Assembly: GCA_016187035.1 (NCBI GenBank)
Contig: JACPKL010000012.1
Span: 8,925-72,924 of the forward strand
Length of the DNA stretch: 64,000 bases
Reading direction: 5' to 3'
Source of the DNA: Candidatus Daviesbacteria bacterium
GTDB lineage: Bacteria; Patescibacteriota; Microgenomatia; Daviesbacterales; UBA10151
The notes under the pieces are model-generated. The model was not told the origin of the DNA and did no database searches. It saw nothing but the letters and a program-made list of their open reading frames with translations. How positions within the stretch are numbered: the first letter of the stretch is position 1; every line of letters starts with the position of its first letter. A program made the translations under genes and the position numbers. This document shows positions 10,568-63,824 of the stretch, piece after piece.

Positions 10568-12883
10568 CTACTCATACCTTAGTGCATTCAAGGCAGATAT
10601 CTTGGTAGCTCTTTTGGCAGGATAAATACCAGTGCCAATTCCAACAAGCAGGGAAAGGAAGATTACTGCCAAAACAAAGGTAAAGGGAATATATGAGACA
10701 TCCACAAACCCTACTCCTTTAAAGATGGCAAAAACAGATAAAATCACGCCCAGCAGTTTCCCCATCAGAAAGCCTAAGATAATACCGATGATCCCTCCAA
10801 AGAATCCCATGATCATAGATTCTGTTAAAAACAATTCCTGGACTTCTGAGGATTTCATTCCCATGGCTTTCATTAGTCCCACCTCCCTGGTTCTCTCAAG
10901 GAGTGATACTGTTAAAGTATTAAACATGCCAAGCGCTGCTACAGCCAGGGCTACCATGCCAAGTAAAGCCAGTATTGTCCTTAGAGTATTAAACAAGGAG
11001 TTGATTTGAGCCACAGTATCAGCAACAGAGCGGGTAGCATAACCCATGGCCTCAATCTGGCGTCTAGTTTTGGCAAGTGAGCCCTGGTCTTTAACTACTA
11101 CCTTAACCTGGGAATAGTTAGTTACTCCTAATGATCTTAAATCAACAAATGGTACATAAAATACAGGAGTTTTTTCATCAGGGGTAACCCCTAAAATAGT
11201 GTAATCTTCTGCCTGGGATTCTACTTTTTGTTGACTGTCATCAGTTAATTCTCCCAGTATTACAAATGAGGCAGAGAACTTCTTGCCTATGGCCTCATTT
11301 TCTTTAATGCCTAAGATTTTAAGCAAGCTGCGGTTGACAATAGCCTGTTTTTTAGCAGCAGAGGATAAAGTAACTGTTTTGGCTTCAGGTGTTTTAATAA
11401 CCCCTGATTCTGAGGCAATCTCCACAAAATCTAAATTAGCAGAACCAGAGGCATCTGTTTGAGTGGAGGTGACACCCAATACTTTAGCAGAGTTTAGGCT
11501 AGATGGTTTGACAGTAGTATCTTTAAATACCAGGTTCATCCTGGCAATATATCCTTTTTTCTGGGTCTGGGAATTATCTGGTTCCCTTAAAACTTTATAC
11601 CTGCCTGCCTCACAATCTCCTTTTTCTTTGTCACAGCTTTCCTGTTTCCAAAGCAGCACATCTGCTTTAATCCAAATACCCAAAGGTTTGCCATCACTAT
11701 CTGCTCCCGCTTTGCCATCATTAGAATCAGATAAATATGTCCCTCCCCAGACTTTTTCTCCCTGGTATTTTCCTTCCACTCTTTTGGTATAGCCTAGGAT
11801 TTTAGCAGCAGCAGAGGGAGATTCTCTGACCCTGATCCATTCATTAGGGTTAATGCTAAACTCCACATCAGCAATTTTGTCACCTATATTGTTCGAAGCC
11901 GAAGGCTGAGAACTATCAGTGCTTACTCCCAATACCTGATCCTTTCTGTCTGGCACAACCATTGACAGTTCATTTGAGTCAAAGATCTTCCCCTCCACAG
12001 GTTTTATCGCAGATTGTTTTAAATAATCAGAAGTTACCCCGTAAACTGCCGTATCAGACACTGAAGATTGGTAGCTGATTCTGCCTACCACAGCAATTAA
12101 TGGTAAAGCCATGCCAACTTCGGGGATATCTTTTAAACTGTTTAAGGTTTTATCATTAATTTTTACCTTAGAGCCTGATTGGGGAGAAACATCAGTCTGC
12201 CTCATTTCATCAAGCCTGGCTACCCTGGTTATTACTAACTGCTGGAGCCCATAACCAATGGAAACCAAAAAGACTATTGCTCCAATACCAATGGCCATGC
12301 CTCCCACAGTTACCATGCTTCTGACCTTTTTAGTCTGCATATTCCTGATAGACAGCTCTATTAAATCCAGCCTGGAGATGGAATTTTGCTGAGTATTATT
12401 TAGAAAACTTACAGCTCTGGTATAAAACTTGGCCCAGGCAGGATGGAATTTTAAATTCAGCCTATCTGTCATTCCCGCGCGACGCTTCGAAGAAGCTAGT
12501 CCCCTTGTGGGGAAAGCGGGAATCCACCTCAACCTGCTTAATTTAAGGACTATCTGGGTATCTATTAGATAGAGACTTAACAGTAAGGCAAAGCTTAAAA
12601 AATGCCAGAAGGTATGTTTAAACAGTAACCAGGTTGCTTTAAGGGAGGCTCTGGTGAGTTTGTGGGTGATTAAGAACTTACCTGAACTGATAATCCAAAG
12701 AGCCAGTTTAACAAGCAGTTTACCAACCCCTTTTGTCATTCCGAGCCCTTCGACTTTGCTCAGGACAGGCTCCGTCGAGGAATCTCCAGATTGCCGCGTC
12801 GCTTCGCTCCTCGCAATGACAGCGGGTCTAGCTTGCCCAGCGACAGGGTTTAGTTTTCTAAAAAACCTTGATCTTTTAATCAT
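10568..12883 (-). CDS. FtsX/MacB-type ABC transporter permease with large extracytoplasmic domain; N-terminal ~137 aa doubtful
   Basis: MacB-type N-terminal helix IRNMQTKKVRSMVTVGGMAIGIGAIVF and C-terminal FtsX domain (RTREVGLMKAMGMK). The first 137 codons contain two translated repeat copies. An alternative start is ATG 12472..12470. Confidence 0.75.
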   Translation of the reverse strand: MIKRSRFFRKLNPVAGQARPAVIARSEATRQSGDSSTEPVLSKVEGLGMTKGVGKLLVKLALWIISSGKFLITHKLTRASLKATWLLFKHTFWHFLSFALLLSLYLIDTQIVLKLSRLRWIPAFPTRGLASSKRRAGMTDRLNLKFHPAWAKFYTRAVSFLNNTQQNSISRLDLIELSIRNMQTKKVRSMVTVGGMAIGIGAIVFLVSIGYGLQQLVITRVARLDEMRQTDVSPQSGSKVKINDKTLNSLKDIPEVGMALPLIAVVGRISYQSSVSDTAVYGVTSDYLKQSAIKPVEGKIFDSNELSMVVPDRKDQVLGVSTDSSQPSASNNIGDKIADVEFSINPNEWIRVRESPSAAAKILGYTKRVEGKYQGEKVWGGTYLSDSNDGKAGADSDGKPLGIWIKADVLLWKQESCDKEKGDCEAGRYKVLREPDNSQTQKKGYIARMNLVFKDTTVKPSSLNSAKVLGVTSTQTDASGSANLDFVEIASESGVIKTPEAKTVTLSSAAKKQAIVNRSLLKILGIKENEAIGKKFSASFVILGELTDDSQQKVESQAEDYTILGVTPDEKTPVFYVPFVDLRSLGVTNYSQVKVVVKDQGSLAKTRRQIEAMGYATRSVADTVAQINSLFNTLRTILALLGMVALAVAALGMFNTLTVSLLERTREVGLMKAMGMKSSEVQELFLTESMIMGFFGGIIGIILGFLMGKLLGVILSVFAIFKGVGFVDVSYIPFTFVLAVIFLSLLVGIGTGIYPAKRATKISALNALRYE
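12467..12526. repeat. MITE-like nested-palindrome repeat (GTCATTCC...GGAATCC family) inside the permease ORF
   Basis: tgtcattcccgcgcgacgcttcgaagaagctagtccccttgtggggaaagcgggaatcca is the reverse complement (about 90 percent identical by eye) of 22296..22350. Confidence 0.8.
12734..12822. repeat. MITE-like repeat (GTCATTCCGAG ... CTCGCAATGACA) inside the permease ORF
   Basis: The termini tgtcattcc / gcaatgacag and the internal gagattgccgcgtcgcttcgctcctcgcaatgac unit are shared with 14596..14634, 14942..14970 and 56782..56875. It is translated as VIARSEATRQSGDSSTEPVLSKVEGLGMT. Confidence 0.8.
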
Positions 12884-12901
12884 AATATATACTATCGGTT
12901 A

Positions 12902-12930
12902 TTGACAAATTAAACATTGTTTGTTAGTAT
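12902..12930 (+). promoter_or_regulatory. plus-strand TTGACA-17-TAGTAT promoter within a conserved 25-nt motif
   Basis: tatactatcggttattgacaaatta (12888..12912) recurs at 19706..19730 with a single T/C difference. Both copies have a 17-nt spacer to TAGTAT. Confidence 0.4.
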
Positions 12931-12968
12931 TTATTCATAAACTTGTAGGGATGGGTGCATGCACCGGT

Positions 12969-13598
12969 TCAGACAAGTTTTTTGTTTATGAACTTTCTTT
13001 TAGCTTCAACCCAATTTATCCTTTTCTCGCTAATAATTTGACCTGCAAGCATTTTATAGTACTTATCATTCTTCCCTGTTTCATTTGCCAAAACAGCTCC
13101 TGCTATCATATCTGCAACATTAACCCGTTTTACCTCTTTACTGTCAACATGATGGATAACTGGTAATTTTGGAAGCAGTTGCCTTAAGGATTTATCAAAT
13201 TGCAGAGTGTCATAATCCCTGGAAAAATGACGGTCAAAAATAATTTCCTTAATATCCTGATAAAAACTGAATACGTCGTTTAAAAGCAGCCAACAAAGCA
13301 GGGCAAAGTGTTCTGGCGTATCAGGTATTTTCCTGCCCATTTTTTCAACTTCTAAAATGAAGATTTCAAAATCCTCTTTGGTAATTTTTTCAAAGAATAA
13401 TTGTTTTGTTTTATCTCCGGCAGTATAAAATTTGAGTTCTCCTGTTTGCTTTCTGATATCTCCCTTTTTCTTGAGTGTTTTAAATAGCTGGTCTATAACT
13501 ACAGGAGTATTTGTCGAAACAGCAGCAATCACAATTACTTTATCTTTTACATCAGGCAGTGTGCCTGATTCATCAATAAAAATAGTAAATTTATCCAT
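12969..13598 (-). CDS. DUF3800 domain protein
   Basis: The N-terminus FTIFIDESGTLPD is characteristic of DUF3800. The gene sits between the ABC ATPase and permease genes. Confidence 0.65.
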   Translation of the reverse strand: MDKFTIFIDESGTLPDVKDKVIVIAAVSTNTPVVIDQLFKTLKKKGDIRKQTGELKFYTAGDKTKQLFFEKITKEDFEIFILEVEKMGRKIPDTPEHFALLCWLLLNDVFSFYQDIKEIIFDRHFSRDYDTLQFDKSLRQLLPKLPVIHHVDSKEVKRVNVADMIAGAVLANETGKNDKYYKMLAGQIISEKRINWVEAKRKFINKKLV

Positions 13599-13642
13599 AT
13601 CTTAATCTTAAATATCTCAAATTTATGATGTTAAATCAAAAC

Positions 13643-14587
13643 TCATCCCTTTACCCCTGCCCCTTTAGGCAAATGGTCTCCATCTCCTCTTTTAATATCT
13701 ATGGTTTTTAGTAATTTCTCTTTATCACGATTTCCAAACTTTTTAATAACAGTCCCGTCAAACATCTGTAAGGCTTCCTTGGCATATTTTAGGTATTCCA
13801 AATCATGGGTAACCATAATAATGGTTTTACCCTTTTCCTTTGTCATCCCCGACCCGATCGGGGATCCACTGTTATTTGTATGGATTCCCGCCTGCGCGGG
13901 AATGACAGAAGAAGGCGTAGGGCGGTTTAACCTGACCAGAAGTTCCATTAACTCCTGGCCGGACTCAAAGTCCAAGTTTCCTGTTGGCTCATCTGCAATA
14001 AGTACCTGGGGACTGGTAATTAAAGCCCGGGCTAGCGCAATTCTTTGCTGCTGGCCAGAGGATAATTCTGAGGTTTGGTAGTTAGCCCAGTTAGCCATGC
14101 CAATGCTTTGCAAAATCTGTCCTGCTTTTTGAATACCGGTTATTTTATCTTCTCCCAGTAAAGACAAAGGGAAAGCCACATTTTCAATCACAGTTAAAGC
14201 TTTAATCCAGTTTGGCTGCTGGTAAACCATGCCTACATGCTCTTTCCTAAATTGGGACCTGTCATCCTCACTTGTCATTCTGTCATCCTGGCTTGTCCAG
14301 GATCTGATTCTGGAGTCCTCCTCCACGTTTCGCTCTGAGTCGTCCCCAGAATGACGTGAGGTATGGTACAAGTCTTTATCTAAAAATACCACTGTGCCGG
14401 TAGTTGGTTCTTCCAGTCCTAAGATGGTATGAAGAAGGGTTGATTTGCCACAGCCTGATGGCCCAAAGATAATTAAGAAATCCCCCTGGTAAACCTCAAA
14501 AGAGATATCCTTTAATATCTCTACCTGCTGTACTCCCACAGTAAATGATTTAGATAAATTCTTAACTTGTATAACTGTGCTGCTCAT
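13643..14587 (-). CDS. ABC transporter ATP-binding protein (LolD/MacB-type) carrying two in-frame repeat insertions
   Basis: Walker A GPSGCGKST, signature LSSGQQQR, Walker B LIADEPT and H-loop VTHD are present. Two segments absent from the paralog at 52815..53480 coincide with repeat copies. Confidence 0.9.
   Translation of the reverse strand: MSSTVIQVKNLSKSFTVGVQQVEILKDISFEVYQGDFLIIFGPSGCGKSTLLHTILGLEEPTTGTVVFLDKDLYHTSRHSGDDSERNVEEDSRIRSWTSQDDRMTSEDDRSQFRKEHVGMVYQQPNWIKALTVIENVAFPLSLLGEDKITGIQKAGQILQSIGMANWANYQTSELSSGQQQRIALARALITSPQVLIADEPTGNLDFESGQELMELLVRLNRPTPSSVIPAQAGIHTNNSGSPIGSGMTKEKGKTIIMVTHDLEYLKYAKEALQMFDGTVIKKFGNRDKEKLLKTIDIKRGDGDHLPKGAGVKG
13841..13908. repeat. MITE-like double-hairpin repeat inside the ATPase ORF
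   Basis: tgtcatccccgacccgatcggggatcc ... ggattcccgcctgcgcgggaatgacag has the same two-hairpin layout as 24188..24257. It is translated as SVIPAQAGIHTNNSGSPIGSGMT. Confidence 0.85.
14259..14360. repeat. MITE-like repeat cluster (GTCATCC / GAATGAC units) inside the ATPase ORF
   Basis: ctgtcatcctcacttgtcattctgtcatcctggcttgtccaggatc ... ccccagaatgacgtgagg is translated as RHSGDDSERNVEEDSRIRSWTSQDDRMTSEDDRS. Confidence 0.75.
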
Positions 14588-14595
14588 ATGTCCTT

Positions 14596-14634
14596 TGTCA
14601 TTGCGAGGTCGCTCAAAGCGACCGTGGCAATCTC
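14596..14634. repeat. palindromic unit TGTCATTGCGAGG..GGCAATCTC abutting the 3' end of the GIY-YIG gene
   Basis: tgtcattgcgaggtcgctcaaagcgaccgtggcaatctc overlaps the GIY-YIG stop codon by 2 nt. The inverted partner lies at 14942..14970. Confidence 0.8.
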
Positions 14635-14929
14635 ATTTAATAATTTCTTCATACAAATCATTAAAACCAGGATTTATCTTTCTTACCAAATCAACTTTCT
14701 TTTTACGCGGGCCTGCTTTTATTTGTTTTTCTCTTGTTATGGCTTCGTTAATATCATTAAATATTTCATAATAAACAAGTTTAACTACGTTATACTTTGA
14801 GGTAAAACCAGATACCATCTTTTGTTTGTGTTCATACATACGTCTTATTAAATTATTTGTTACACCTGTATAGAGCACAGTGTTCATTTTATTTGTGGCA
14901 ATGTATACATAGTATTGTTTTGACTGCAT
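14633..14929 (-). CDS. GIY-YIG nuclease family protein (UPF0213/YhbQ-like)
   Basis: YYVYIATNKMNTVLYTGVTNNLIRRMYEHK contains the GIY-(x)-YTG and R..EH motifs of the GIY-YIG fold. Confidence 0.85.
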   Translation of the reverse strand: MQSKQYYVYIATNKMNTVLYTGVTNNLIRRMYEHKQKMVSGFTSKYNVVKLVYYEIFNDINEAITREKQIKAGPRKKKVDLVRKINPGFNDLYEEIIK

Positions 14930-14941
14930 AAAACAATTATA

Positions 14942-15060
14942 GAGATTGCTTCGCTATGCTCGCAATGACAGAAAAACTCTCCCCAGAATGACGAAACCCA
15001 TACCCGGAATGACCGGAACCCGAACGTCATCTTTACCAGAATGACGCTTTGCGTCATTTC
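14942..15060. repeat. cluster of palindromic units (GAGATTGC..GCAATGACA, then four GAATGAC half-sites)
   Basis: gagattgcttcgctatgctcgcaatgaca is followed by ccagaatgacg, cggaatgaccgg, acgtcat and ccagaatgacgctttgcgtcatttc. The last hairpin contains the stop codon of the 1546-aa gene. Confidence 0.75.
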
Positions 15061-18000
15061 CCTATTCCTCCCAAAAACCCAAAAGCTTCCTGTAAGTTGG
15101 TGATTACTAAATTTAAGGCATTCTCTGTAGCCTTTGGAGTAATAGTGACAGTATCAATGGAGTTACCTAGATTCCCTGCTTTATCTTTGGAAATTGCCCT
15201 AAGGTGATAAACTTTAGATGGGGTTAAATTAGAAATAATTACCAGATGGTTAAAGGTTAAATTACTATCTTCCTGGGTTTTTTGGGCATAACTTACTCCT
15301 GTCCCTTCCCCAAACTCTACTTGGGTGGTAGAGGGTTCATCACTATTCCAGGAAACAACCAGTTGGGCTGTTTGTTCCTGGGCAGTGCCTGAGACAGGTG
15401 GGATGTTTGATCCTTCAACATTAAGATCTGAGATGGCCGGTGGTCTGGTATCTGTGGCTGTGGTTAACCTTTGGGAATCAGAGCTTGCTTCATTGCCTAT
15501 CTTATCCCTGCCTTTAACTACCAATATATAATCTGTCTGGGGCAGTAAGCTTCTGACAATCATCTTATGTTCACCTTTGGTCAAGGCTACATTTACCTCA
15601 TCCCTGGCATCTTGTGGTTTTCCTTCTGGATAGTAAGTGACAATAGAGGAAACTTCTGTATTGGTAGTCCAGGAAACCAGGATGGTGGACTGGGCAGTAT
15701 TGGCCACCTGCTGGATCCTCACCCCTGATATTTTTGGCCTGGGAAGAGTGGTAAAGTCCAACACTGTCCCTTCATATTCAGAATTATCTGAATCAAAAGT
15801 ATTGATCTTGTAATAATACTTTGCTCCATCATCTAAACCTGTTAATTCTGCTGTATAAGTGGTCTCAGAGGTTGAGGTGGAGATTTCCTTGGATCCTCCA
15901 AATGAGGTAGTCTTGCCATAGTATATTTTAACTTTACTGGCATCTTTGGAAGTAAACTGGATTATTCCTGAAGTTAAACCGATGTTTTTGGCAGAAACAT
16001 CTTTAACAGTTGGTGCAGAAGAAGTAGCAAAGGATTTCTCATCAGATGTTCCGGTATTACCATCCTCATCAGTCCATTTAGCTTTGTAGTAATAGGTGGT
16101 ACCGGCTGTTAATCCTGTTAGCTGGATAGAATGGGAAGAGACCTGGTCAGAGTTGGATGGTTCAACACTTCCATAGCTTCCACTGGTTGTCCCATACTGG
16201 ATCTTGGAATCAGCACTCCTGGAAGTTGTCCAGGTGATAGTAGACTTTTTGGTAGTAATACTGCCTGCAGATGGCCCGGTAGAAAGTGTTGGAGCAGAAG
16301 TCCATTTGCCTGTTGGAGTAATGGATACAGCATTAGTACCTGAAGAATCAGCAGAGGCTCCGTCCCTGGTATATATTTTGTAGTAATATTTGGCAGATGA
16401 AGGGGTATTGTCTACATAAGACAAGCCTGTTGTGGTGCCTGTCAAAGAAAATGTGCTATTGTCTGTTGAGCGGTAAACTCTGTAGGTTAAATTCCCTGCT
16501 CCCTGGTAAGTTGGTGCTGTCCAGGTTAAAGTGGCATTCCAGGTAGAGGTGGATTTAATGGATGAATCAGAAGCCACTAAGTTGCCTACATTATCAGGGT
16601 CTGTAGAGTTTAAGGTAAAAGTGCCGGTAATGTAGTTGGAAGGTGAATAATTAGGGGTAGAGGCATTATCAACTGCTACCACATATACAGTATTACTGCC
16701 TTTGTTAACACTGGCTAAGGCAGCAGCAGAGACAGTCCTGGTAGTACCGTTATCAATATATGTGGAAGTGTTGCCGGTGATAGTGGCATAAGTAGAAGGC
16801 GGGGCAGTGTTAATCATATAGTAATAATGGGCAACTGTTTGGCCGGAAGTTGGTGTAGCTGCAGGCCAGCTCAAAGCGTAAGAGTTGGAGGTAGAAGTGC
16901 TTGGGGTTACAGTAACCGTATCTGTTCCTAGAAAGCTGGGAGCTGCCCCGCCGTAGGAGATATTACAGGTCCTGATAGTCCCGTCTGACGAAGTATTTCC
17001 GGCAATATCTGCTGTCCTAAAGTAGATGACATTAGTCCCTGAGACAATTGATGAGTTATCCTGGGCCACTGTTAAAGTCCTAGACGTTGCAGAGGTGGGC
17101 ATGTAAGTTAAGCCTGTGGCAGTATCAGTGGTAGTGCCTAACCATGTTCCACTTGTTGAGTTAATCTGGTACTGCCAGCCCAACAGATTAGAATTACTAT
17201 CAGAGGAGGCAGAGCTTCCTGAGGTTGGCCAGTTAAAGCTCATATCAACTACATTGGAAAAGTTACCAGAAGCACAGGAAATATATGTGGTATTGGTTGG
17301 GGCAGTATTGTCAAATTTAAACTGGAAAGAAGCAGAGGTGGCAAACAAATTGCCGGAGTTATCAATAGCTTTAATGTTTAAGTAGTAGGGGGAGCTTGAG
17401 GTAGACAGCCAGGTGGAACCACGATATGAGGTAGTAGCAAAATCAATGGAGGTTGAGGAGGTGATAAACTGGCAGGTGGTGCCTGATGTTGAGACAATGG
17501 TCGTACCCAGCAGTCCTTTAGACGTTGCCGGATCACCATCTGAATCTGCTCCTAAATACAAACAATACCCTTTTAACCCACTACCACCTGAATTATCTGC
17601 CCCGGCTGTCCAGGAAAAATATGGTGATGAATTATTAGTCCAGCCATTGGAAGCAACAGTTGTCCCTCCGTTTGACCTGGTCATGGCAATTGAGGAGGCA
17701 TTAGTCGCTGGTACTGTAGTATCTGTAGTTAAGCCAATACTGATATTAGGAAGTAAAGGAGTATCTGCTCCGCCAAAAGCTAAAATTGCCTTAACCGAGA
17801 TCTTTTGGGAAGTAATAGATAATGCCTGCATGGCTGCCTGGGTTAACTGGGCAGGAGTATTGGTATATGTAGAAGTAGCATCTGTAGCATTAGCCCAGGC
17901 ACCAGCAGTATAGTACTGCCACCTTGAACCTGTGGTATATGAACAAGAAGAACCATCATCCAAACATATCTGGTAAGTAATTGAGGCATTGCCCGAGTGG

Positions 18001-19694
18001 GTGGCATCAGAGGTGCAAGTTGAGCCGGACAGCGTCCCTTCACAAAATGTATCCCAGGAATTTACCTGGGCATTGGAATAAGCAGAGGTGGTATATATAG
18101 AATATGTACCCTGCTTGGATAAAGTAAAATCATCCACTTTGACTGTTTTACCGGCTTTAACTAACAGTCCTGCATCAACAGAAGAAGCAACTCCGGTAAT
18201 TGTGCCTGTGAGCTTATACCAGCCTGTTGATCCTGCTTCAGCAGTATAGGTTGTGGTAACAGTTGAGCCATTATAGTAAAGCTGGGCAACTGTAGTATCA
18301 ATAGCAGCTCCTGAGTTATAATAGGCATAGACAGAGAGATCATAGGTTGAGGTATCCCCAACATTTATAGACTGGTAGACTTTCCCATCAGATACAGAGC
18401 CTATAGTTATGGTATTTCCACCGGCGGCTGACCGGCCGGAAGTAGAGGAAAAAGATTGGGAGATTGCTACGGGATCACTGGCGCAGCGAAAGCCAATGTT
18501 GCCGTTCGTATCGCTAGGCGCATTGTACAGAAGCAACGTAAAGGCTCCTGCGTTGGCGCCATCATTCCAATCGCCACCGCGGAGGAAACCATTATTTAAA
18601 GCTCCACCATACACTTGGCCCATGCCCTGGGCAGATAGGTAAGAGGCAGAAGAGGGGCCGTAAAGAGCCAGGGCTCCTGTTTGGATATTGGCATGGTTCC
18701 ACTCCACCCAGCCTGCAGTAGTATCAATGGCAGAGGATTGGATATCATTGGTCCATTCCCAAACATTGCCCGCAATATCCCAGATATATGCTCCGTTGGA
18801 AAGGGTAAAGACTCTTTTTTGGTTGCCTGCTGTGGCTGACTGGCCGCTTGAGGTATTGGTGGGGCAGGCAGAGGGAGCTTCAGTAGTGCCGGCTGAATCA
18901 GTGTAAGCGCAGGCATTATTGCCGGTGTCGGTGGTTGAGGCAACCCTGGCTAAGGCCGGGGAGTTGTCATTGTGGCCGGCATACAGATAGCCTGAGTTAA
19001 CGCTGCCGCCTGACCAGTTAGAGCCTTGGGCTTCGGCGTTGCGGGTAATAGTCATCCACTCGTTGTTGGTTTGCAGATGGGCAGCTGTGGAGCCAACAGT
19101 TACAGCAGAGCAGCGGGTAACAGAGGTGGTTTGGGAAATATTGGCAATAGGGTAGCCTGAGGCAACTGATACTACAGCCCTGGAGTTGGCAGAGGTACAG
19201 GCTGCGGTGTTATCCGGCCAGGTTCTGTAGCCGGTATCAGAGGTGGTTAAACCGGTGGTTAAATCTGAGGTGGCAGCACACTTGGCTTCATACTTTTGGA
19301 TTAAAAAGTTGGTGGTGGAAAAGGTGGCATTACCAGGCACTTCTACCCATCCAGAAGGAGGAACAGCTGCTACAGACCAGGAGGTGTTGTTAGAGGCAAA
19401 GGCTGGATTGGAGAGTTTGTTAACCCCTGAAACCGGGTGGGCGCCGGTATTGTCTACTGTGATTAGGGAAGTATCATAAGTATAGTTGGCAGCAGTAGAG
19501 GCATTAAAAGCCCAGTTTTTATTGGTGTCATTTAGGGCAAAGATCTTAGGCAATAGGTACTCGTTAGTTAAGTACCCAAAGGTAAAGAGGATGCCAGCGG
19601 AGAAAGCTACAAAAAGGCAAAGGTTAAACTGCCATTTGGCAATGGTGATTTTTTTGGTAAAAAAGTTGTGTACAATGTATCTAACAAATCTCAT
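15054..19694 (-). CDS. DGR variable (target) protein: N-terminal TM anchor, FGE-sulfatase/C-type-lectin-fold domain carrying the VR, long FN3/Ig-like repeat array
   Basis: TM helix FNLCLFVAFSAGILFTFGYL. FGE-sulfatase-type motifs are FLIQKYEAK, AHLQTNNEWMTIT, IAGNVWEWTND and GFRCASD. These are followed by about 1100 aa of T/S/G-rich modules with repeated W.T...S...V.YG...Y.Y... FN3-like patterns. Confidence 0.85.
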   Translation of the reverse strand: MRFVRYIVHNFFTKKITIAKWQFNLCLFVAFSAGILFTFGYLTNEYLLPKIFALNDTNKNWAFNASTAANYTYDTSLITVDNTGAHPVSGVNKLSNPAFASNNTSWSVAAVPPSGWVEVPGNATFSTTNFLIQKYEAKCAATSDLTTGLTTSDTGYRTWPDNTAACTSANSRAVVSVASGYPIANISQTTSVTRCSAVTVGSTAAHLQTNNEWMTITRNAEAQGSNWSGGSVNSGYLYAGHNDNSPALARVASTTDTGNNACAYTDSAGTTEAPSACPTNTSSGQSATAGNQKRVFTLSNGAYIWDIAGNVWEWTNDIQSSAIDTTAGWVEWNHANIQTGALALYGPSSASYLSAQGMGQVYGGALNNGFLRGGDWNDGANAGAFTLLLYNAPSDTNGNIGFRCASDPVAISQSFSSTSGRSAAGGNTITIGSVSDGKVYQSINVGDTSTYDLSVYAYYNSGAAIDTTVAQLYYNGSTVTTTYTAEAGSTGWYKLTGTITGVASSVDAGLLVKAGKTVKVDDFTLSKQGTYSIYTTSAYSNAQVNSWDTFCEGTLSGSTCTSDATHSGNASITYQICLDDGSSCSYTTGSRWQYYTAGAWANATDATSTYTNTPAQLTQAAMQALSITSQKISVKAILAFGGADTPLLPNISIGLTTDTTVPATNASSIAMTRSNGGTTVASNGWTNNSSPYFSWTAGADNSGGSGLKGYCLYLGADSDGDPATSKGLLGTTIVSTSGTTCQFITSSTSIDFATTSYRGSTWLSTSSSPYYLNIKAIDNSGNLFATSASFQFKFDNTAPTNTTYISCASGNFSNVVDMSFNWPTSGSSASSDSNSNLLGWQYQINSTSGTWLGTTTDTATGLTYMPTSATSRTLTVAQDNSSIVSGTNVIYFRTADIAGNTSSDGTIRTCNISYGGAAPSFLGTDTVTVTPSTSTSNSYALSWPAATPTSGQTVAHYYYMINTAPPSTYATITGNTSTYIDNGTTRTVSAAALASVNKGSNTVYVVAVDNASTPNYSPSNYITGTFTLNSTDPDNVGNLVASDSSIKSTSTWNATLTWTAPTYQGAGNLTYRVYRSTDNSTFSLTGTTTGLSYVDNTPSSAKYYYKIYTRDGASADSSGTNAVSITPTGKWTSAPTLSTGPSAGSITTKKSTITWTTSRSADSKIQYGTTSGSYGSVEPSNSDQVSSHSIQLTGLTAGTTYYYKAKWTDEDGNTGTSDEKSFATSSAPTVKDVSAKNIGLTSGIIQFTSKDASKVKIYYGKTTSFGGSKEISTSTSETTYTAELTGLDDGAKYYYKINTFDSDNSEYEGTVLDFTTLPRPKISGVRIQQVANTAQSTILVSWTTNTEVSSIVTYYPEGKPQDARDEVNVALTKGEHKMIVRSLLPQTDYILVVKGRDKIGNEASSDSQRLTTATDTRPPAISDLNVEGSNIPPVSGTAQEQTAQLVVSWNSDEPSTTQVEFGEGTGVSYAQKTQEDSNLTFNHLVIISNLTPSKVYHLRAISKDKAGNLGNSIDTVTITPKATENALNLVITNLQEAFGFLGGIGK
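18473..18592 (-). repeat. DGR variable repeat (VR)
   Basis: Gap-free 120-nt match to TR 21699..21818 with 10 mismatches, all at TR adenines on the coding strand. It encodes NGFLRGGDWNDGANAGAFTLLLYNAPSDTNGNIGFRCASD (aa ~368-407). Confidence 0.92.
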
Positions 19695-19719
19695 TTCACA
19701 CTTTCTATACTATCGGCTA

Positions 19720-19748
19720 TTGACAAATTAGCTACTCTTTGCTAGTAT
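19720..19748 (+). promoter_or_regulatory. plus-strand TTGACA-17-TAGTAT promoter in the second copy of the conserved 25-nt motif
   Basis: tatactatcggctattgacaaatta (19706..19730), TTGACA 19720..19725 and TAGTAT 19743..19748. Confidence 0.4.
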
Positions 19749-19764
19749 TAAGCTACTAAACTCT

Positions 19765-19799
19765 CCTGCAAGGCCGAAAGGTGTTTGCAGGATTTTTTT
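19765..19799 (+). terminator. intrinsic terminator (plus strand)
   Basis: cctgcaa (19765..19771) pairs with ttgcagg (19785..19791) across a 13-nt loop, followed by T7 (19793..19799). Confidence 0.55.
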
Positions 19800-19810
19800 A
19801 TCTGTATTTT

Positions 19811-20350
19811 TTATTTTTCCTTCACAAACGATAAGATATTCTGTTTGGTAAGCAATGTGTATTTTGAACAGACGTTAATAAGCGCATAGCTGCGTTGGTG
19901 AGAAAAGCCAACATACTCCAGTATTTTCCTTTTCTCTATGGCTTTTTTAATAGCTGGCAGGAGATCTGTATCAGAGGATATGAGAATAATTCTTGTACAT
20001 AGGTTTTCATAAGCAGCAACCAAAATATCTACGGCTATATTTACATCTACACCCTTTTCGTGATAGACACCGTCAGATTTTAAAAGATAACCCAGAGAGT
20101 AATTAATATTATGTTTTTTGAGATGTTCGAATAGTTTTTGTTGATTGGCAAGCATCTTTTTGCCTTTTTCGCTTTGAGGGTTAGTGCTTACCTTGCCAAC
20201 ATAATATGTAGCGTGAACTATTTCTTCGTTATTGGCTAACATTTTGACAAACCCGGAAAAGTTAAAATTGAGCAAATTATGAAGGTCTAGCCCCTTCAGC
20301 TTAAAATAGAAGTTGCTGCCGTCTATAAGTACAATGCATTTATTTTTCAT
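19811..20350 (-). CDS. NYN (LabA-like) domain protein located between DGR RT and target
   Basis: VLIDGSNFYFK ... EKGVDVNIAVDIL ... ISSDTDLLPAIKKA. It is a clear paralog of 46449..46979, sharing ANQQKLF.HL, LGYLL, HEKGVDV.IAVDI and ISSDTDLLPAI. Confidence 0.75.
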   Translation of the reverse strand: MKNKCIVLIDGSNFYFKLKGLDLHNLLNFNFSGFVKMLANNEEIVHATYYVGKVSTNPQSEKGKKMLANQQKLFEHLKKHNINYSLGYLLKSDGVYHEKGVDVNIAVDILVAAYENLCTRIILISSDTDLLPAIKKAIEKRKILEYVGFSHQRSYALINVCSKYTLLTKQNILSFVKEK

Positions 20351-20388
20351 TTTCTACATAAAACACAGAGGAATTACCCCTGTATAAA

Positions 20389-21450
20389 CTATGGCAAATT
20401 CTGATCAAAAAGGCAAGTTTTAAGATGATAAGCATTGGCATAATTTAAGTGTCCGGCAAAAGAACTTTTCATCAGGTCTAAGGATTTTTGGCTCACTTGC
20501 CCTTTTTGGACCGCCTTTTCCTTCTTTTTAAGTTTTCTCTGAAACCTTCGCAGGGTTGATCCCCGAACTAATACATGGTCATAAAAAGTCCGGTAACCAA
20601 CGAAAGCCACACCGTTTTTAGTATTTTGGATAACAGATTTTTTAGGATGAAGGGTAAGCCTTAGGTTATCCCAAAGAAATACTCTTACTTTTTCTTTAAT
20701 CTGTTTGAGGTGTTCCTTATCCGGGTGGATAATATAAAAATCATCCATGTATCTGCCATACCAGTGTTCTCTTAAGTTTTCCTTAACAAAATGGTCCAGC
20801 TCGTTTAAATAAACATTGGCAAACAGCTGGGAGGTTAAATTGCCAATCGGCAAGCCTTTTCTTTCCTCAATTGAAATAACCTCTTTTGGCAAGCCCTGGA
20901 TTTTATTCCTGTTTAAGAAAACTTTATGGGTGGTGATGACTGTTAAGATCAACTCCTTAATTTTGGGATCAGTTATTTTCTTTTCAATTAGTTTAATTAA
21001 AATATCCCAGGAAATGGAAGGAAAAAACTTGGTAATATCACATTGGAGGATATATAACTGCTTTTCTCTACCATAAACAGAACGGGCAGCCTGGAGGAAC
21101 TTTTTTAATCTGCTTTTGGCAAAATGGGTTCCTCTGCCTTTTCTGCAGGCATAGGCATCTTCGATAAAGGCTTTGTCAAATAAAGGTTCGATAACAGATA
21201 CCAAGCCGTGGTGGAAAACCCTATCCCTAAAGTTTGGAGCAGCCACATGTCTTGTCTTAGGATCAGTTACCACAAAGTAAGTATATGGATAAGGGGAGTA
21301 ATGGTTGGTTAAAAGCTCCCATCTCAGTTTAAACAAATTGTCTTCCAGGAAAAGGTCAAATTTACACACCTGCCTTTTATAGCGATTATCACGTCTGGCT
21401 AAGCGGTAAGAATTTAATAAATGTTCAAAATTGCAAAGAGTATTAAACAT
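20389..21450 (-). CDS. DGR reverse transcriptase
   Basis: RT motifs include the DGR-typical LPIGNLTSQLFANVYLNELD ([I/L]GxxxSQ) and the catalytic YGRYMDDFYII (YMDD). The gene is adjacent to TR and avd. Confidence 0.9.
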   Translation of the reverse strand: MFNTLCNFEHLLNSYRLARRDNRYKRQVCKFDLFLEDNLFKLRWELLTNHYSPYPYTYFVVTDPKTRHVAAPNFRDRVFHHGLVSVIEPLFDKAFIEDAYACRKGRGTHFAKSRLKKFLQAARSVYGREKQLYILQCDITKFFPSISWDILIKLIEKKITDPKIKELILTVITTHKVFLNRNKIQGLPKEVISIEERKGLPIGNLTSQLFANVYLNELDHFVKENLREHWYGRYMDDFYIIHPDKEHLKQIKEKVRVFLWDNLRLTLHPKKSVIQNTKNGVAFVGYRTFYDHVLVRGSTLRRFQRKLKKKEKAVQKGQVSQKSLDLMKSSFAGHLNYANAYHLKTCLFDQNLP

Positions 21451-21698
21451 AAAATACCGGTATTAACTTATGAGCCCGCCTAACTTATAAGCGGGCTCAA
21501 TGTCTCGTCCCTTATCTAAATTTATCCTATTTACCTTCCATCCCTTTTGTAATTTGGGATGCAAGAATACAGGTATTATGTTTTCATAGGCCAAAGACCT
21601 TTGACGGAGAAAGCTCTGTGATCTTTTAAACCCTGGACAGATATCCTTGGATGTCTGCCACTCGTTCTGGCGATAAAGGGACACTTTCTTTTTCTTTT

Positions 21699-21818
21699 GA
21701 TCACTGGCGCAGCGAAAGCCAATGTTGTTGTTCGTATTGCTAGGCGCATTGTTCAGATTCAACGTAAAGGCTCCTGTGTTGGCGCCATTATTCCAATTGC
21801 CACCGCGGATGAAACCAT
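21699..21818 (-). repeat. DGR template repeat (TR)
   Basis: Lies between avd and RT. It has 33 adenines on the coding strand (hand count), 10 of which are substituted in the VR, while none of the 87 other positions differ. It is rich in AAY codons (..NWNNGANTGAFTLNLNNAPSNTNNNIGFRCASD). Confidence 0.92.
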
Positions 21819-21869
21819 CGGCACAAATGAGAACCTTCCCCATATTTAATATATCAGGTAACAATACTT

Positions 21870-22244
21870 TCATAAAAGAGCTTGTTGTTTTATGCCTTCT
21901 TTGCTTTCCTGGCATTTGACCCAGCCGGTCATTATCCTGCCTATCTCATTTAATTTTTCTGATGCCAGGGTATACTGCTTAACACTCATAAGTCTTAAAT
22001 CCTTAGTCAAACGGGTTAAAATCCGTAAACAATCCAGTTCATCTGAAATATTTTGCTGCATGACAGCTCTTTCCTGTCCCCTGGATTTATTGGCTTTAAT
22101 TAACAGTAAAAGTATAGATATGCAAAGTTCCTCCAGGTGTTTTCCTACGACCATTCTATGACTTTTCGGAATTCGGTTGATAACCGGAAACAGCCAGACC
22201 ACTAAATCATAGAATTTTTGGTAAATAATTAGTTGGTCAGCCAT
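21870..22244 (-). CDS. avd: DGR accessory variability determinant (Avd, four-helix-bundle protein)
   Basis: MADQLIIYQKFYDLVVWLFPVINRIPKSHRMVVGKHLEELCISILLLLIKANKS matches the Avd / 23S-rRNA-intervening-sequence four-helix-bundle family. The track ORF (to 22394) is extended 50 codons through a MITE, so I take ATG 22244..22242 as the start. Confidence 0.8.
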   Translation of the reverse strand: MADQLIIYQKFYDLVVWLFPVINRIPKSHRMVVGKHLEELCISILLLLIKANKSRGQERAVMQQNISDELDCLRILTRLTKDLRLMSVKQYTLASEKLNEIGRIMTGWVKCQESKEGIKQQALL

Positions 22245-22255
22245 AAAAAATCCAA

Positions 22256-22372
22256 TGTCATTCCGTGCTTGACACGGAATCCATATAATATGGATCCCCG
22301 CCTCCCCCACAAGGGGACTGGCTTCTTCGAAGCGTCGCGCGGGAATGACACTGGAAAAAACTGAATTCATAC
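22256..22372. repeat. MITE-like nested-palindrome repeat immediately upstream of avd
   Basis: tgtcattccgtgcttgacacggaatcc ... cgcgcgggaatgacactggaaaaaactgaattcatac. The inner part is the reverse complement of 12467..12526. Confidence 0.8.
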
Positions 22373-22429
22373 CAAGATTAGCCCGTATTATCAAGCTATT
22401 CTTGATATTGAGAACCCAGGCGACTCACT

Positions 22430-24156: not shown

Positions 24157-24278
24157 GTAACTATTCAGTTCTTACCAAAACATACATTGTCATTCCCATG
24201 AAAATGGGAATCTATATAAATAAAATTCTGGATTCCCGATCAAGTCGGGAATGGCACTGGTAAATACTGAATACTAAC
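24157..24278. mobile_element. complete MITE (~122 bp) with terminal inverted repeats GTAACTATTCAGTT.. / ..ACTGAATACTAAC
   Basis: gtaactattcagttcttacca...tgtcattcccatgaaaatgggaatc...ggattcccgatcaagtcgggaatggcactggtaaatactgaatactaac. The TIRs and two internal hairpins are readable directly. Confidence 0.75.
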
Positions 24279-29214: not shown

Positions 29215-29239
29215 TAGCGGCATGAAAACAATCACACAT

Positions 29240-30235
29240 CTATCCTACCTCGGAGGTGGGAGTGAAGCTACACCTAGGGTTTAATGTGTTAATTAATGTT
29301 TTTAACCCTTTTTCCAGTCCTATTTTTGGTTCCCAGCCTAAGACTTCTTTGGCATGGGAGATATCAGGACAACGCTTTAAAGGATCATCTTCTGGCAGCT
29401 CAGCTATAGATTTTATTTCAGATGTGGATCCTGTCAGCTGTTTGATTTTTTCTGCCAGCTCCTGTATGGTAAATTCCTGAGGGTTTCCCAAATTAAACAC
29501 CTTCCCTTTATTCCCCTTTTCCATGGCTAATACAATCCCTTCTATTAAATCTGAGACATAGCAGAAAGATCTGGTTTGGCTGCCATTACCAAAAATTGGA
29601 ATAGGTTTATTGGCCAAAGCTGCATTGATAAACTCAATCACCACCCTGCCATCATCTGCCATTCTTGGCCCATAAGTATTAAAGATTCTGACTGTTCTGC
29701 CATCCAATCCTTTTGACCTGATGAAAGCAGCAGTAATTGTTTCCCCGAATCTTTTAGACTCATCATAAACTGACCTTGGCCCTAAAGTTGATACATTTCC
29801 CAGATAACTTTCTTTTTGAGGGTGTTCCTTTGGATTGCCATATATTTCAGAGGTGGAGGCAAACAAAAACTTAGCTCCTATTTTTTTGGCCAGTTCACAT
29901 AAATTCCAGGTTCCTAAGGAGTTAACCTGCATGGTTTCAAAAGCCAAAGCATGATAGGACTTGGGGCTGTTAATATTAGGAGAAGCAGGAGAAGCCAAAT
30001 GGTAAATTTGATCTGCCCCGATTAAATCGGGGTTCGCTTCAAGATCCAAAGGTAAAGGTTTTACCACATCTGCTTCAATAAATCTAAAATTAGGGTTTGA
30101 TCTTAAATGCTCAATGTTTTTTAAGTCACCTGTTAAAAGGTTATCAATAGCTATAACTTCATCCCCACGCTGGAGTAACTTATCTACTAAATGTGATCCA
30201 AGAAATCCGGCACCTCCCGTGACTATTATTTTCAT
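29240..30235 (-). CDS. UDP-glucuronate decarboxylase / UDP-xylose synthase-like NAD-dependent epimerase-dehydratase
   Basis: Rossmann motif TGGAGFLGSHL and the catalytic YDESK context. The C-terminal 13 aa (NPRCSFTPTSEVG) and the stop codon are encoded by a REP copy. Confidence 0.8.
   Translation of the reverse strand: MKIIVTGGAGFLGSHLVDKLLQRGDEVIAIDNLLTGDLKNIEHLRSNPNFRFIEADVVKPLPLDLEANPDLIGADQIYHLASPASPNINSPKSYHALAFETMQVNSLGTWNLCELAKKIGAKFLFASTSEIYGNPKEHPQKESYLGNVSTLGPRSVYDESKRFGETITAAFIRSKGLDGRTVRIFNTYGPRMADDGRVVIEFINAALANKPIPIFGNGSQTRSFCYVSDLIEGIVLAMEKGNKGKVFNLGNPQEFTIQELAEKIKQLTGSTSEIKSIAELPEDDPLKRCPDISHAKEVLGWEPKIGLEKGLKTLINTLNPRCSFTPTSEVG
29243..29286 (+). repeat. REP-like palindromic element (RAYT-associated family, subtype A)
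   Basis: tcctacctcggaggtgggagtgaagctacacctagggtttaatg is identical over about 38 nt to the reverse complement of 61102..61140. Confidence 0.85.
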
Positions 30236-36707: not shown

Positions 36708-36733
36708 TTAGCTTTGAACCCCAGGAATTTAGG
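36688..36733 (+). repeat. interspersed repeat family 3 (GTTCAAACCCCAGGGGTTGA.TAGCTTTGAACCCCAGGAAT)
   Basis: Near-identical copies lie at 51762..51807, 54667..54695 (partial), 55924..55959 and, inverted, 63825..63864. Confidence 0.85.
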
Positions 36734-38445: not shown

Positions 38446-38485
38446 ATTACACCCAAAAATTACCCGAAGTCAATACCCAAAACCC

Positions 38486-38533
38486 TCCTACCTCGGAGGT
38501 AGGATTACGATGAGACGTAGGGTTTAATGCTTC
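38486..38533 (+). repeat. REP-like element (subtype B), intergenic
   Basis: See 37262..37309. It is in the same orientation and lies at the boundary of the G+C-richer operon. Confidence 0.9.
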
Positions 38534-51781: not shown

Positions 51782-51807
51782 ATAGCTTTGAACCCCTGGA
51801 ATTAGCC
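51762..51807 (+). repeat. interspersed repeat family 3, full copy
   Basis: gttcaaaccccaggggttgaatagctttgaacccctggaattagcc. Confidence 0.85.
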
Positions 51808-51819
51808 TTATTTTATTTC

Positions 51820-52818
51820 ATGAAAAAGAATTTTTTAAAATTTTTAATAGCTGGATTAATTATTTTAGCTCTGGTTGGTTTTTTTGTTTTTAAACCAAAA
51901 AATAATGCCCAGAAGCTGGAATTTACAACTATTAAAAGGCAGGATATCAGATCAACTGTTTCCTCATCAGGTTCTTTATCAGGTAAAAATACAGCAAACC
52001 TAAAGTTTAAATCAGCCGGAAAATTAGCTTATCTTAATATTAAAGAAGGGGATAAGGTTTTTGCAGGACAAGTTATTGCAGGCTTGGATACCCAGACGCT
52101 TAGTATTGCCCTTCAGCAGGCCCAGAATACCTTTGTTTCTAAGGATGCAGCTGCCAAAAAGGCTGAGGATGATGTTAAAAACCATGATAAAGATGAGACT
52201 TTTGCCCAGAAAGAAACCAGAATCTCAACCCAGGTTGCCAGGGATAATGCTTATGATAGTGTGAAAGAAGCTCAAAGAGCTTTTGGTGATGCTGTAATTG
52301 CCTCTCCTATATCAGGTTTAGTTACCCAGGCTGATTCTCTGCCCGGACAAAATGTTTCAACCACAGATATAATTGCTCAAATAGTTGATACTTCTGAAAT
52401 TATTTTTGATACAGATGTTGATGAGGCTGATATTGGTAAAATATCTCAAGGCCTGCCTGCAGAAATTACTTTGGATGCTTATGGAGATAAAATATTTAAA
52501 GGTCAGGTTAATCAGATTTTACCTCAAACCAAAACTACCGCTTCCGGTGCCACAGTTGTAACAGTTAAAATCAAGTTAAGTGATCCTCCTCAAAATTTTG
52601 TGGATGGGTTAACAGGGCAGGCAATAATTATTTTGGAGGAGGTCAAAAATGCTTTAACTATTCCTGTTGATGCCCTCAGGGAAGATGGCAGTGTATTTAC
52701 TCAAAACAATCAAAACATTAAGGTCAAAACCGGTATCAGGTCTGATACTGATGTGGAAATAAAAGAAGGATTAGAGGAAAAAGAAAAGGTATTGCTTAAT
52801 CCTCCAGCTAAAAAATGA
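51820..52818 (+). CDS. efflux transporter periplasmic adaptor (MacA/HlyD family)
   Basis: Signal-anchor MKKNFLKFLIAGLIILALVGFF followed by barrel-sandwich/lipoyl motifs (GDKVFAGQVIAGLD, ISGLVTQ). The track start at 51778 lies inside the repeat, so I prefer ATG 51820. Confidence 0.8.
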   Translation: MKKNFLKFLIAGLIILALVGFFVFKPKNNAQKLEFTTIKRQDIRSTVSSSGSLSGKNTANLKFKSAGKLAYLNIKEGDKVFAGQVIAGLDTQTLSIALQQAQNTFVSKDAAAKKAEDDVKNHDKDETFAQKETRISTQVARDNAYDSVKEAQRAFGDAVIASPISGLVTQADSLPGQNVSTTDIIAQIVDTSEIIFDTDVDEADIGKISQGLPAEITLDAYGDKIFKGQVNQILPQTKTTASGATVVTVKIKLSDPPQNFVDGLTGQAIIILEEVKNALTIPVDALREDGSVFTQNNQNIKVKTGIRSDTDVEIKEGLEEKEKVLLNPPAKK

Positions 52819-53480
52819 GCCTGGTAAAACTTTCCAAGATTAATAAAACCTATCAGTCGGGCGAGGTCACTTTTCAGGCCTTAAAAAATATAAATTTAGA
52901 AGTTAAAAAAGGTGAATTTATAGCAATTATTGGAGCTTCAGGCTCAGGTAAATCTACTTTGATGAATATTATCGGGCTCCTGGACCACCCTACAGATGGT
53001 TTATATGAGCTTGACAGCCAAAATGTCTCTTTTCTTAAAGAAGACAGCAAAGCTAAATTACGGAATCAAAAAATAGGTTTTGTTTTCCAGTCATTTAACC
53101 TGTTACCGCGGACTTCTGCTTTGGAGAATGTAGCTTTGCCTTTAATTTATGCAGGAGTTTCCAAGGCAGAAAGGCTACTTAAAGCAAAAGAAGCCTTAAA
53201 ACAGGTTGGTTTAGCCGAAAAGTCTCAATCCCATCCCAACCAGTTATCAGGAGGGCAGCAGCAAAGGGTGGCAATTGCCAGGGCACTAGTCATCCAGCCT
53301 GACATATTTTTAGCAGATGAGCCCACCGGCAACCTGGATACAAAATCCGGTGAAGAGATTATGAGGATCTTTGAACAGCTGCACAAGGAGGGTAAAACTA
53401 TCATTATGATTACCCATGAGATGGGTATTGCCAAACATGCTAAAAGAATTATCAGGCTTAAAGACGGAGAAATAATTTAA
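52815..53480 (+). CDS. ABC transporter ATP-binding protein (MacB/LolD type)
   Basis: [34 protein letters not shown] and MITHE motifs. Confidence 0.9.
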
Positions 53481-53482
53481 TT

Positions 53483-54695: not shown

Positions 54696-54722
54696 TTATT
54701 TTATATTAATAATAAGTAAACA

Positions 54723-54761
54723 TCCTACCTCCGAGGTAGAAGTGAAGCTACACCTAGGGTC
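54723..54761 (+). repeat. REP-like element (subtype A)
   Basis: tcctacctccgaggtagaagtgaagctacacctagggtc. Confidence 0.85.
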
Positions 54762-54785
54762 TTTCTACAAATTTTGCATATTCTG

Positions 54786-55913: not shown

Positions 55914-55923
55914 TCTCCTTAAT

Positions 55924-55959
55924 GAACCCCAGGGGTTGAATACGTTCAAACCCCAGGAA
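55924..55959 (+). repeat. interspersed repeat family 3 variant
   Basis: gaaccccaggggttgaatacgttcaaaccccaggaa is the reverse complement of 63825..63864. Confidence 0.85.
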
Positions 55960-60386: not shown

Positions 60387-60389
60387 TAA

Positions 60390-61140: not shown

Positions 61141-61143
61141 TAG

Positions 61144-63814: not shown

Positions 63815-63824
63815 TCTGCAATAA

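Follow-up and report, generated by a model that had tools for sequence, protein, structure and literature searches.

A gene for a MacB/LolD-type ATP-binding cassette (ABC) ATPase in Candidatus Daviesbacteria carries two hairpin-forming repeats within its reading frame, and both segments are lineage-specific insertions, not ancestral sequence. The gene (13643..14587, minus strand; 314 aa; Pfam ABC_tran E = 8e-33) lies in a stretch of 64,000 nt of contig JACPKL010000012.1 (positions 8,925-72,924, forward; assembly GCA_016187035.1), hereafter the window, and its product is identical to the NCBI entry 'ABC transporter ATP-binding protein [Candidatus Daviesbacteria bacterium]'. To judge by their sequence, both inserts are dimers of CGTC/TGTC-tagged hairpins of the repetitive extragenic palindromic (REP) type, a family also called Ssn-related motifs (SRMs) and akin to NTS/dRS3, and we think it likely that these are selfish repeats tolerated by a working gene. 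Palindromes inserted in frame are on record from Rickettsia as well as from other bacteria, and the system here is of no new kind; what it adds is modest, namely the host clade (the candidate phyla radiation, CPR, outside both of the papers on these repeats that we draw on below), the host protein, and the presence together at one locus of a nuclease gene, of fresh copies within genes and of an orthologous site that is empty.

The C-terminal insertion (13834..13924, minus strand) adds a net 87 nt, or 29 codons, with a peptide of about RPTPSSVIPAQAGIHTNNSGSPIGSGMT, between the helix that follows the D-loop and the strand that runs up to the H-loop. The N-terminal insertion (14272..14364, minus strand) adds a net 78 nt, or 26 codons, with a peptide of about RHSGDDSERNVEEDSRIRSWTSQDDRMT, between the β-hairpin after Walker A and the helix preceding the Q-loop. 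One of the two peptides is hydrophilic and the other rich in Gly, Ser and Pro; LNRPTPSSVIPAQAGIHTNNSGSPIGSGMTK is an example of a junction-spanning tryptic peptide of the ATPase. An earlier note on this DNA had proposed palindromic repeats in frame inside an intact ABC ATPase, and had put the inserts at about 33 and 27 aa: the proposal is borne out, whilst the sizes have to be corrected to the net values given here. Indeed, when aligned at the DNA level with the orthologous genes at L001 and L002 (the loci that encode homologs P0002 and P0003), the gene shows gaps of 78 nt (~14287-14364) and 87 nt (~13834-13920), both multiples of 3, with the borders of the N-terminal insert ambiguous by a few nucleotides. 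The closest homologs, P0002, P0003 and P0004 (80, 78 and 75% identity over aligned columns; 247-256 aa), have neither segment, and the HMMER match to E. coli LolD is interrupted at the inserts (LolD residues 72/80 and 193/195). Alignment with orthologs had been set beforehand as the test that could refute insertion; the absence of homologous segments from repeat-free relatives favours it. The paralogous ATPase at 52815..53480, brought in by the same note as an internal control, behaves as described there. Neither junction, compared with the empty orthologous sites, shows a direct repeat or target-site duplication.

Could the two segments be ancestral variable linkers of this ABC subfamily? The N-terminal site does vary from 4 to 34 aa among homologs, holding 4 residues in 81 sequences of a 121-sequence alignment and 24-34 in ~30 others. 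However, the length of the C-terminal site is invariant elsewhere, neither segment is present in the three closest homologs, and both are recognisable copies of a dispersed hairpin family, such that we give ancestral linkers next to no credence. Hardly more credible is an assembly artefact, in which short repeats were collapsed or mis-joined. The source is a metagenome-assembled genome, the dispersed repeats are about as long as a sequencing read, and the insertions are seen in one genome only; yet a contig from an independent Logan assembly (run SRR12113424) is 100% identical over window positions 12793-16587 (3795 nt), and thus reproduces both junctions. Furthermore, each ATPase insert is a unique sequence variant and not a copy of another locus, and a mis-join would rarely keep the frame twice.

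The C-terminal segment at 13841-13908 reads TGTC-ATCCCCGA-CCCGA-TCGGGGAT-CCA, a 10-nt spacer, then TGG-ATTCCCGC-CTGC-GCGGGAAT-GACA. It is made of two units in inverted orientation with their tags outward: the NTS-like C1 (13880..13907, minus strand; TGTC-ATTCCCGC-GCAG-GCGGGAAT-CCAT) and C2 (13841..13869, plus strand; TGTC-ATCCCCGA-CCCGA-TCGGGGAT-CCAC). The N-terminal insert belongs to a variant subfamily (CGTCATTCTGG / TGTCATCCTGG) and comprises N1 (14281..14307, plus strand; TGTC-ATCCTGG-CTTGT-CCAGGAT-CTGA), with a 7-bp stem and a 5-nt loop read from sequence and present in the predicted fold, and N2 (14305..14355, minus strand; CGTC-ATTCTGG...CCAGAAT-CAG), which has an expanded loop and whose first 14 nt (CGTCATTCTGGGGA) recur at 14985-14998, upstream of a neighbouring GIY-YIG nuclease gene. 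As hairpins, the inserts fold better than shuffled sequence (z = -3.4 and -3.9; 0/200 shuffles as good). Across the 64-kb window the motif GTCATYCC occurs in 11 copies against 2.56 expected, a count reached in 0/100 shuffles, and inverted dimers are found at 13841-13908, 14281-14355, 22256-22350, 24188-24262 and 56782-56876; seven of the 11 repeat loci fall within 12.4-15.1 kb. The assignment of the two segments to a dispersed family in the earlier note is therefore sound, the two-hairpin architecture recurring at 22256-22350 and 24188-24262, but its description of that family as otherwise intergenic is not, for three more in-frame copies sit in the partner permease gene (12467-12526, 12735-12790 and ~12787-12825).

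The features of these units are those of a published family. CGTC REPs (Di Nocera et al. 2013, PMC3733652) carry a CGTC tag that is often TGTC, with CCTC also accepted, a stem of 8-9 bp whose first pairs are A-T, a loop of 4-5 nt and a CCA tail; they are mostly found as inverted dimers and include Neisseria dRS3 as well as RPE-4 and RPE-6 of Rickettsia. All four units have the tag, TGTC in C1, C2 and N1 and CGTC in N2, and the family is multi-copy and arranged in inverted dimers (11 repeat loci in 64 kb). C1 and C2 agree fully in stem, loop and tail, N1 only in part (7-bp stem, CTG tail), and N2, with its expanded loop, is atypical. The C-terminal insert is thus a member of the CGTC-REP/SRM family by the criteria applied, whereas the N-terminal insert departs from typical CGTC REPs in its 7-bp stems and in the greatly expanded loop of one unit. 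The published SRM search pattern, HGTCWYN(0-2)YYVSBRHN(0-5)WNVSBRGN(0-2)RNCYNB (PMC11893778), finds exactly two matches in the 64-kb window, C1 and C2, where 100 shuffles give an expectation of 0.16; in its strict form it matches neither the N-terminal units nor the other copies in the window. Unit C1 also agrees with the Neisseria NTS consensus CGTCATTCCCGCGMAVGCGGGAATCYRG (from PMC11893778) at 26/28 positions, counted by eye.

The parallel extends to the insertions themselves. Intragenic CGTC REP dimers and RPEs lie in frame and add 20-30 aa to conserved proteins, for which compatibility with the protein fold has been proposed (PMC3733652; Ogata et al. 2000, 2002 as cited in PMC10969869), and double insertions in one gene are known, e.g. 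in uvrA and uvrB (PMC3733652; PMC10969869). In its tag, A-T-starting stem, loop, CCA tail, inverted dimers and in-frame double insertion, the Daviesbacteria locus therefore resembles CGTC REP dimers and RPE-4 and RPE-6 of Rickettsia conorii; it is unlike the described CGTC REPs in its host, a CPR bacterium outside the five phyla listed for them, and in its host protein, a MacB/LolD-type ATPase.

The label 'MITE-like' (for miniature inverted-repeat transposable element) had also been given to these repeats. It is loosely acceptable for small, palindromic, dispersed repeats: MITEs such as Correia, ERIC and Nezha are likewise small, non-autonomous, palindromic and dispersed, and occasionally lie in frame within genes. 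The repeats here are nonetheless REP-type hairpin dimers built of a 28-nt unit, as opposed to 100-400 bp, and a classical MITE was rejected for want of the long terminal inverted repeats of an insertion sequence (IS) and of a target-site duplication, the 'inverted repeat' being two opposed hairpin units. Coxiella QMITE1 and QMITE2 were set aside as relatives, as they differ in length (150-400 bp) and have terminal inverted repeats, direct repeats and GTAG REPs. We also discarded the open reading frame (ORF) at 21870-22394 as a further in-frame case: the repeat precedes the true Avd start, M51, and is hence intergenic. No Rfam family covers the repeats, a scan of the window having returned tRNAs only; the raw repeat motifs gave primer matches only in a literature search, and a 40-aa repeat-peptide query against proteins gave no candidates, which is no gauge of how frequent such peptides are in other proteins. 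The bases beside the tags are purine-rich (AAGGA, GAAGA in several copies), from which we claim no target-site preference.

Does the gene that hosts these repeats still work? The residues of Walker A, the Q-loop, signature, Walker B, the D-loop and the H-loop are all kept, lying in invariant alignment columns, which upholds the claim that Walker A, signature, Walker B and H-loop are untouched. With its ABC fold, its motifs and a partner permease of the FtsX/MacB_PCD kind, the protein belongs to the MacB/LolD-type (type VII) ABC ATPases. In the AlphaFold2 model 215/314 residues have a pLDDT >= 90, and a Foldseek search with that model puts 5lj9, the nucleotide-binding domain of E. coli MacB, first (target-normalised TM-score 0.94, rmsd 1.6 A; 0.94-0.95 across matches to this domain of E. 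coli MacB). The only internal stretches modelled with low confidence are the two inserts, residues 77-105 (pLDDT 45-65) and 223-250 (32-34); the structure prediction that the earlier note had suggested as a check thus places both inserts in putative loops. From what is generally understood of ABC domains, we take these loops to face the solvent, at a distance from both the dimer interface and the permease interface. The transporter most likely still works, because in the model the insert loops leave the ABC fold and catalytic motifs intact. In some Patescibacteria the ATPase and an FtsX/MacB permease are fused (P0169, P0171, P0185, P0212; 944-966 aa), as in proteobacterial MacB.

The earlier note had left open whether the loops are tolerated or the gene is a recently inactivated copy, and here the evidence favours tolerated loops, low-confidence as they are on a confident fold. 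In the second case, the in-frame inserts would cripple folding, dimerisation or coupling to the permease, with decay not yet visible. Several observations do weigh on that side. The C-terminal loop may be length-constrained, since it measures 4-5 aa in 120/120 other sequences of the alignment and 33 aa in this ATPase; with the loop short in all 120 homologs, its tolerance of the insert is inferred from the structure model. The stems of the hairpins in both inserts are still perfect, which suggests recent insertion events. No relative with either ATPase insertion was found, the protein cluster having one member, and for this reason selection after the insertions is not measurable and no later purifying selection can be pointed to. 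Finally, a second complete MacB-type system in the window, at 51778-54673, which includes the paralogous ATPase, could compensate for a loss.

Against inactivation stands, above all, the reading frame. None of the five repeat segments that the ATPase and permease genes carry breaks the frame or brings in a stop, even though the N-terminal insert is open in only one of its six frames, the one in use (three of six are open in the C-terminal insert); under neutrality this outcome would have a probability of roughly 1e-4 or lower, an indication that intact ORFs were selected for every time. One of the permease repeats, a unit at ~12787-12825 encoding VIARSEATRQS, has 30/34 nt in common with the ortholog at L002, where it reads IERNETTRQS, and has therefore been kept in frame since before the two lineages split. 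Nor is the ATPase branch accelerated: its length equals that of its sister P0002 (e.g. 74.9% vs 74.8% identity to P0004), and nonsynonymous differences amount to 0.13-0.15 per site vs 0.64-0.77 synonymous, the latter saturated against the nearest orthologs. Both inserts, moreover, fall in loops outside the catalytic motifs, and the N-terminal loop has proved expandable in the ~30 homologs already mentioned. We thus consider inactivation unlikely, and tolerated selfish insertions in a working gene the probable state of affairs.

Another CPR lineage has an insert of its own at the same first ATPase loop: an unrelated AT-rich palindrome (AGTATTAAGTATCAAGTAT / ATACTTAATACT), also in frame, and exactly 34 aa long in 25 protein clusters (homologs P0024-P0089). 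It is clear in L086 (~1038-1139; fold z = -3.9) and also seen in L003 (5232-5319), and its motif recurs just 3' of the ATPase gene in L086, L003 and L004. In the loci with this palindrome, a bAvd/23S_rRNA_IVP gene lies directly upstream of the ATPase gene.

Where might the Daviesbacteria repeats have come from? Separated from the ATPase start by 46 nt lies the stop of a gene for a single-domain GIY-YIG nuclease, a candidate member of the Ssn family with these repeats as its putative cognates (14633..14929, minus strand; 98 aa), in which GIY-YIG is the only Pfam domain (E = 6e-17). NCBIfam has no model for the protein. The 46-nt gap holds a REP unit (14596..14634, plus strand; TGTCATTGCGAGG...CGTGGCAATCTC; fold z = -3.6), and upstream of the nuclease gene is a cluster of tags and units (14940..15053, unstranded) that includes TGTCATTGCGAGCATAGCGAAGCAATCTC, a unit matching the downstream TGTCATTGCGAGG...CGTGGCAATCTC, and the 14-mer CGTCATTCTGGGGA with which the N-terminal insert begins. 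The gene is thereby framed by repeats in a repeat-gene-repeat layout, with flanks at 14596-14634 and 14940-14975.

This arrangement is not peculiar to the window. The GIY-YIG protein has relatives with 48-75% identity in 80 genomes spread over many phyla, among them an uncultured Neisseria (57% identity, E = 7e-30; L072), and we analysed the flanks of the 80 corresponding loci (L006-L085), inspecting the layout in 40 of them. The tag motif has a density of 6.5-8 per kb at <=150 nt from the GIY-YIG gene vs ~0.3 per kb beyond, a 20-25x enrichment, and is present within 150 nt in 62/80 loci. In a majority of the 40 inspected, the arrangement is TGTCATTGCGAG...GCAATCTC - gene - GAGATTGC...CTCGCAATGACA, with the downstream-unit consensus TGAGATTGC...CTCGCAATGACA recurring 3' of the gene. 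The relatives (<=75% identity) come from Gammaproteobacteria, Pirellulales, Dehalococcoidia, CPR, Atribacterota, Legionella, Chloroflexia and others, and most are bordered by GTCATTGCGAG...GCAATC hairpins, a stem variant that the SRM pattern misses; published counts of Ssn-associated repeats may for this reason be too low.

The association of repeats with GIY-YIG genes is itself a re-discovery of a published link. Chenal et al. 2025 (PMC11893778) reported that, across bacteria, small GIY-YIG genes with a single domain are flanked by NTS CGTCATTCCCGCGMAVGCGGGAATCYRG and related SRMs, and that Ssn proteins cut single-stranded DNA next to a hairpin; the family is there taken as proteins of ~100 aa with GIY-YIG as their one domain that either are homologs of N. 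meningitidis SsnA (blastp E < 1e-10) or fall in cd10448. Our locus is like the Ssn/NTS system in having such a ~100-aa single-domain gene flanked on both sides by YGTCAT-tagged hairpins, here 46 nt from the ATPase gene, and in the agreement of C1 with the NTS consensus and of both C-terminal units with the SRM pattern. It is unlike the published SRMs in that the putative nuclease gene has flanks with a ATTGCGAG stem, outside the SRM pattern. The Ssn paper makes no mention of intragenic or in-frame copies, or of Patescibacteria (PMC11893778), and the 2013 paper on CGTC REPs found no dedicated enzyme for them (PMC3733652), whereas here a family-flanked GIY-YIG gene adjoins the insertions.

The orthologous locus L002 offers a view of the region without these elements. 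There, the stop of a surface-protein gene overlaps the start of the ATPase gene, and the ATPase stop overlaps the start of the permease gene; L002 lacks the nuclease and DUF3800 genes, its ATPase gene is free of repeats, and its surface-protein gene matches the C-terminal end of the window's 1546-aa ORF with 87% identity. Compared with it, the window has as extras the repeat-GIY-YIG-repeat unit, the two ATPase dimers, a DUF3800 gene and three permease repeat segments. The comparison shows that the nuclease gene and the repeats on its two sides came in as a unit between the genes for the surface protein and the ATPase.

From this, we infer a course of events in which the GIY-YIG element arrived first and its hairpins then spread locally, as two dimers into the ATPase gene and as further copies into the permease gene. 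To judge from the parallel with RAYT/REP systems and from the IS-like layout described in PMC11893778, the hairpins would probably have spread as single-stranded DNA on which the nuclease acts. A survival filter would have followed, in which only in-frame, stop-free copies in permissive surface loops persisted, and in the translated ATPase the survivors would form disordered loops, 26 and 29 residues long. The RAYT systems, which are IS200/IS605-like, do provide a fitting model in that their REPs and REPINs are short hairpins, often in inverted pairs, that flank a single small enzyme gene, leave no target-site duplication and are thought to move as single-stranded DNA; the differences are that the enzyme here is a GIY-YIG nuclease and not an HUH tyrosine transposase, and that the tag is CGTC/TGTC and not GTAG.

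Taken to its full extent, the locus would be a snapshot of a GIY-YIG (Ssn) element in the act of seeding CGTC-type hairpins into its neighbours, with Ssn as the missing mobilising enzyme of CGTC REPs, including Rickettsia RPE-4/6, and with in-frame 'protein-decorating' insertion a routine event in streamlined CPR genomes. We offer this wider picture tentatively and ourselves lean towards doubting it. Some of the evidence runs counter to the course of events proposed above. The published Ssn work demonstrates cleavage of single-stranded DNA and an effect on transformation, not transposition (PMC11893778). The stem of the GIY-YIG flanks (ATTGCGAG) differs from those in the ATPase gene (ATTCCCGC, ATCCCCGA, ATYCTGG), and the strict SRM pattern matches only 2/80 of the related GIY-YIG loci, whose flanks are of the ATTGCGAG-stem variant.

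A different relation between nuclease and repeats is also conceivable, in which the repeats have been co-opted, either as Ssn cleavage or recognition sites that bracket the gene core and modulate recombination or transformation, or as new functional protein loops. In Neisseria, a gene placed between two NTS is replaced less by transformation, an effect that depends on SsnA (PMC11893778); in the window, the hairpins are intact and the repeats strongly clustered around the transporter, beside a surface-protein gene diversified by a retroelement. Clustering near the nuclease gene is, however, equally expected from the local spread of selfish DNA, the insertions are conserved in no other genome, and no domain is detectable in the peptides, for which disorder is predicted. 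Co-option thus strikes us as quite improbable, and selfish insertions tolerated by the ATPase remain the reading that we prefer.

The implications reach somewhat beyond this gene. In-frame insertion of palindromic repeats is extended to a CPR genome and to an ABC transporter ATPase, and a single locus joins two literatures, that of the CGTC REPs without a known transposase (2013) and that of the Ssn/NTS system (2025). The ortholog locus, free of the nuclease and with a repeat-free ATPase, forms a before/after pair with the window for asking whether Ssn-type nucleases spread hairpins. For annotation, repeat content alone is no ground for calling such genes pseudogenes, and VIPAQAGIH or VIARSEATRQS peptides inside conserved proteins are a recognisable signature of the family.

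Around the ATPase gene, the partner permease gene of FtsX/MacB type (10568..12883, minus strand; Pfam FtsX + MacB_PCD) holds, apart from the VIARSEATRQS unit, two in-frame REP-derived segments: one at 12467-12526 that encodes the 17 aa AFPTRGLASSKRRAGMT, absent from 15/15 homologs, and one at 12735-12790 (PVLSKVEGLGMT). Between the ATPase and permease genes lies the DUF3800 gene (12969..13598, minus strand) that is absent from L002 and looks like a separate insertion splitting the operon. A 44-nt direct repeat, 84% identical between its copies (TATACTATCGGYTATTGACAAATTA...TAGTATT), stands immediately 5' of the permease gene (12888-12931) and of the gene for the 1546-aa surface protein (19706-19749); with a TTGACA box and a TAnnAT-like box it resembles a promoter, and may serve as the permease's own after the operon was split.

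Immediately upstream of the transporter, the surface-protein gene is the target of a complete diversity-generating retroelement at 15054-22242, composed of a variable repeat (18473-18592), a template repeat (21699-21818), a reverse transcriptase gene (20389-21450; RVT_1) and avd (21870-22242; NF033474; true start M51). The 120-nt pair of template and variable repeats is 92% identical, with 10/10 mismatches at template adenines, and in the 1546-aa, fibronectin-rich protein the targeted region is an FGE-sulfatase/C-type-lectin-like domain close to the N-terminus. Elsewhere in the window there are a second dispersed repeat family (ATCCTACCTCGGAGGTRGGA...CCTAGGGT) and a third (GTTCAAACCCCAGGGGTTGA...TTTGAACCCC), both unrelated to the GTCAT family and mostly at gene ends; their sites are 29235-29283, 37261-37309, 38485-38533, 54717-54762, 60389-60437 and 61100-61149, and further 36685-36729, 51759-51804, 55917-55962 and 63822-63864.

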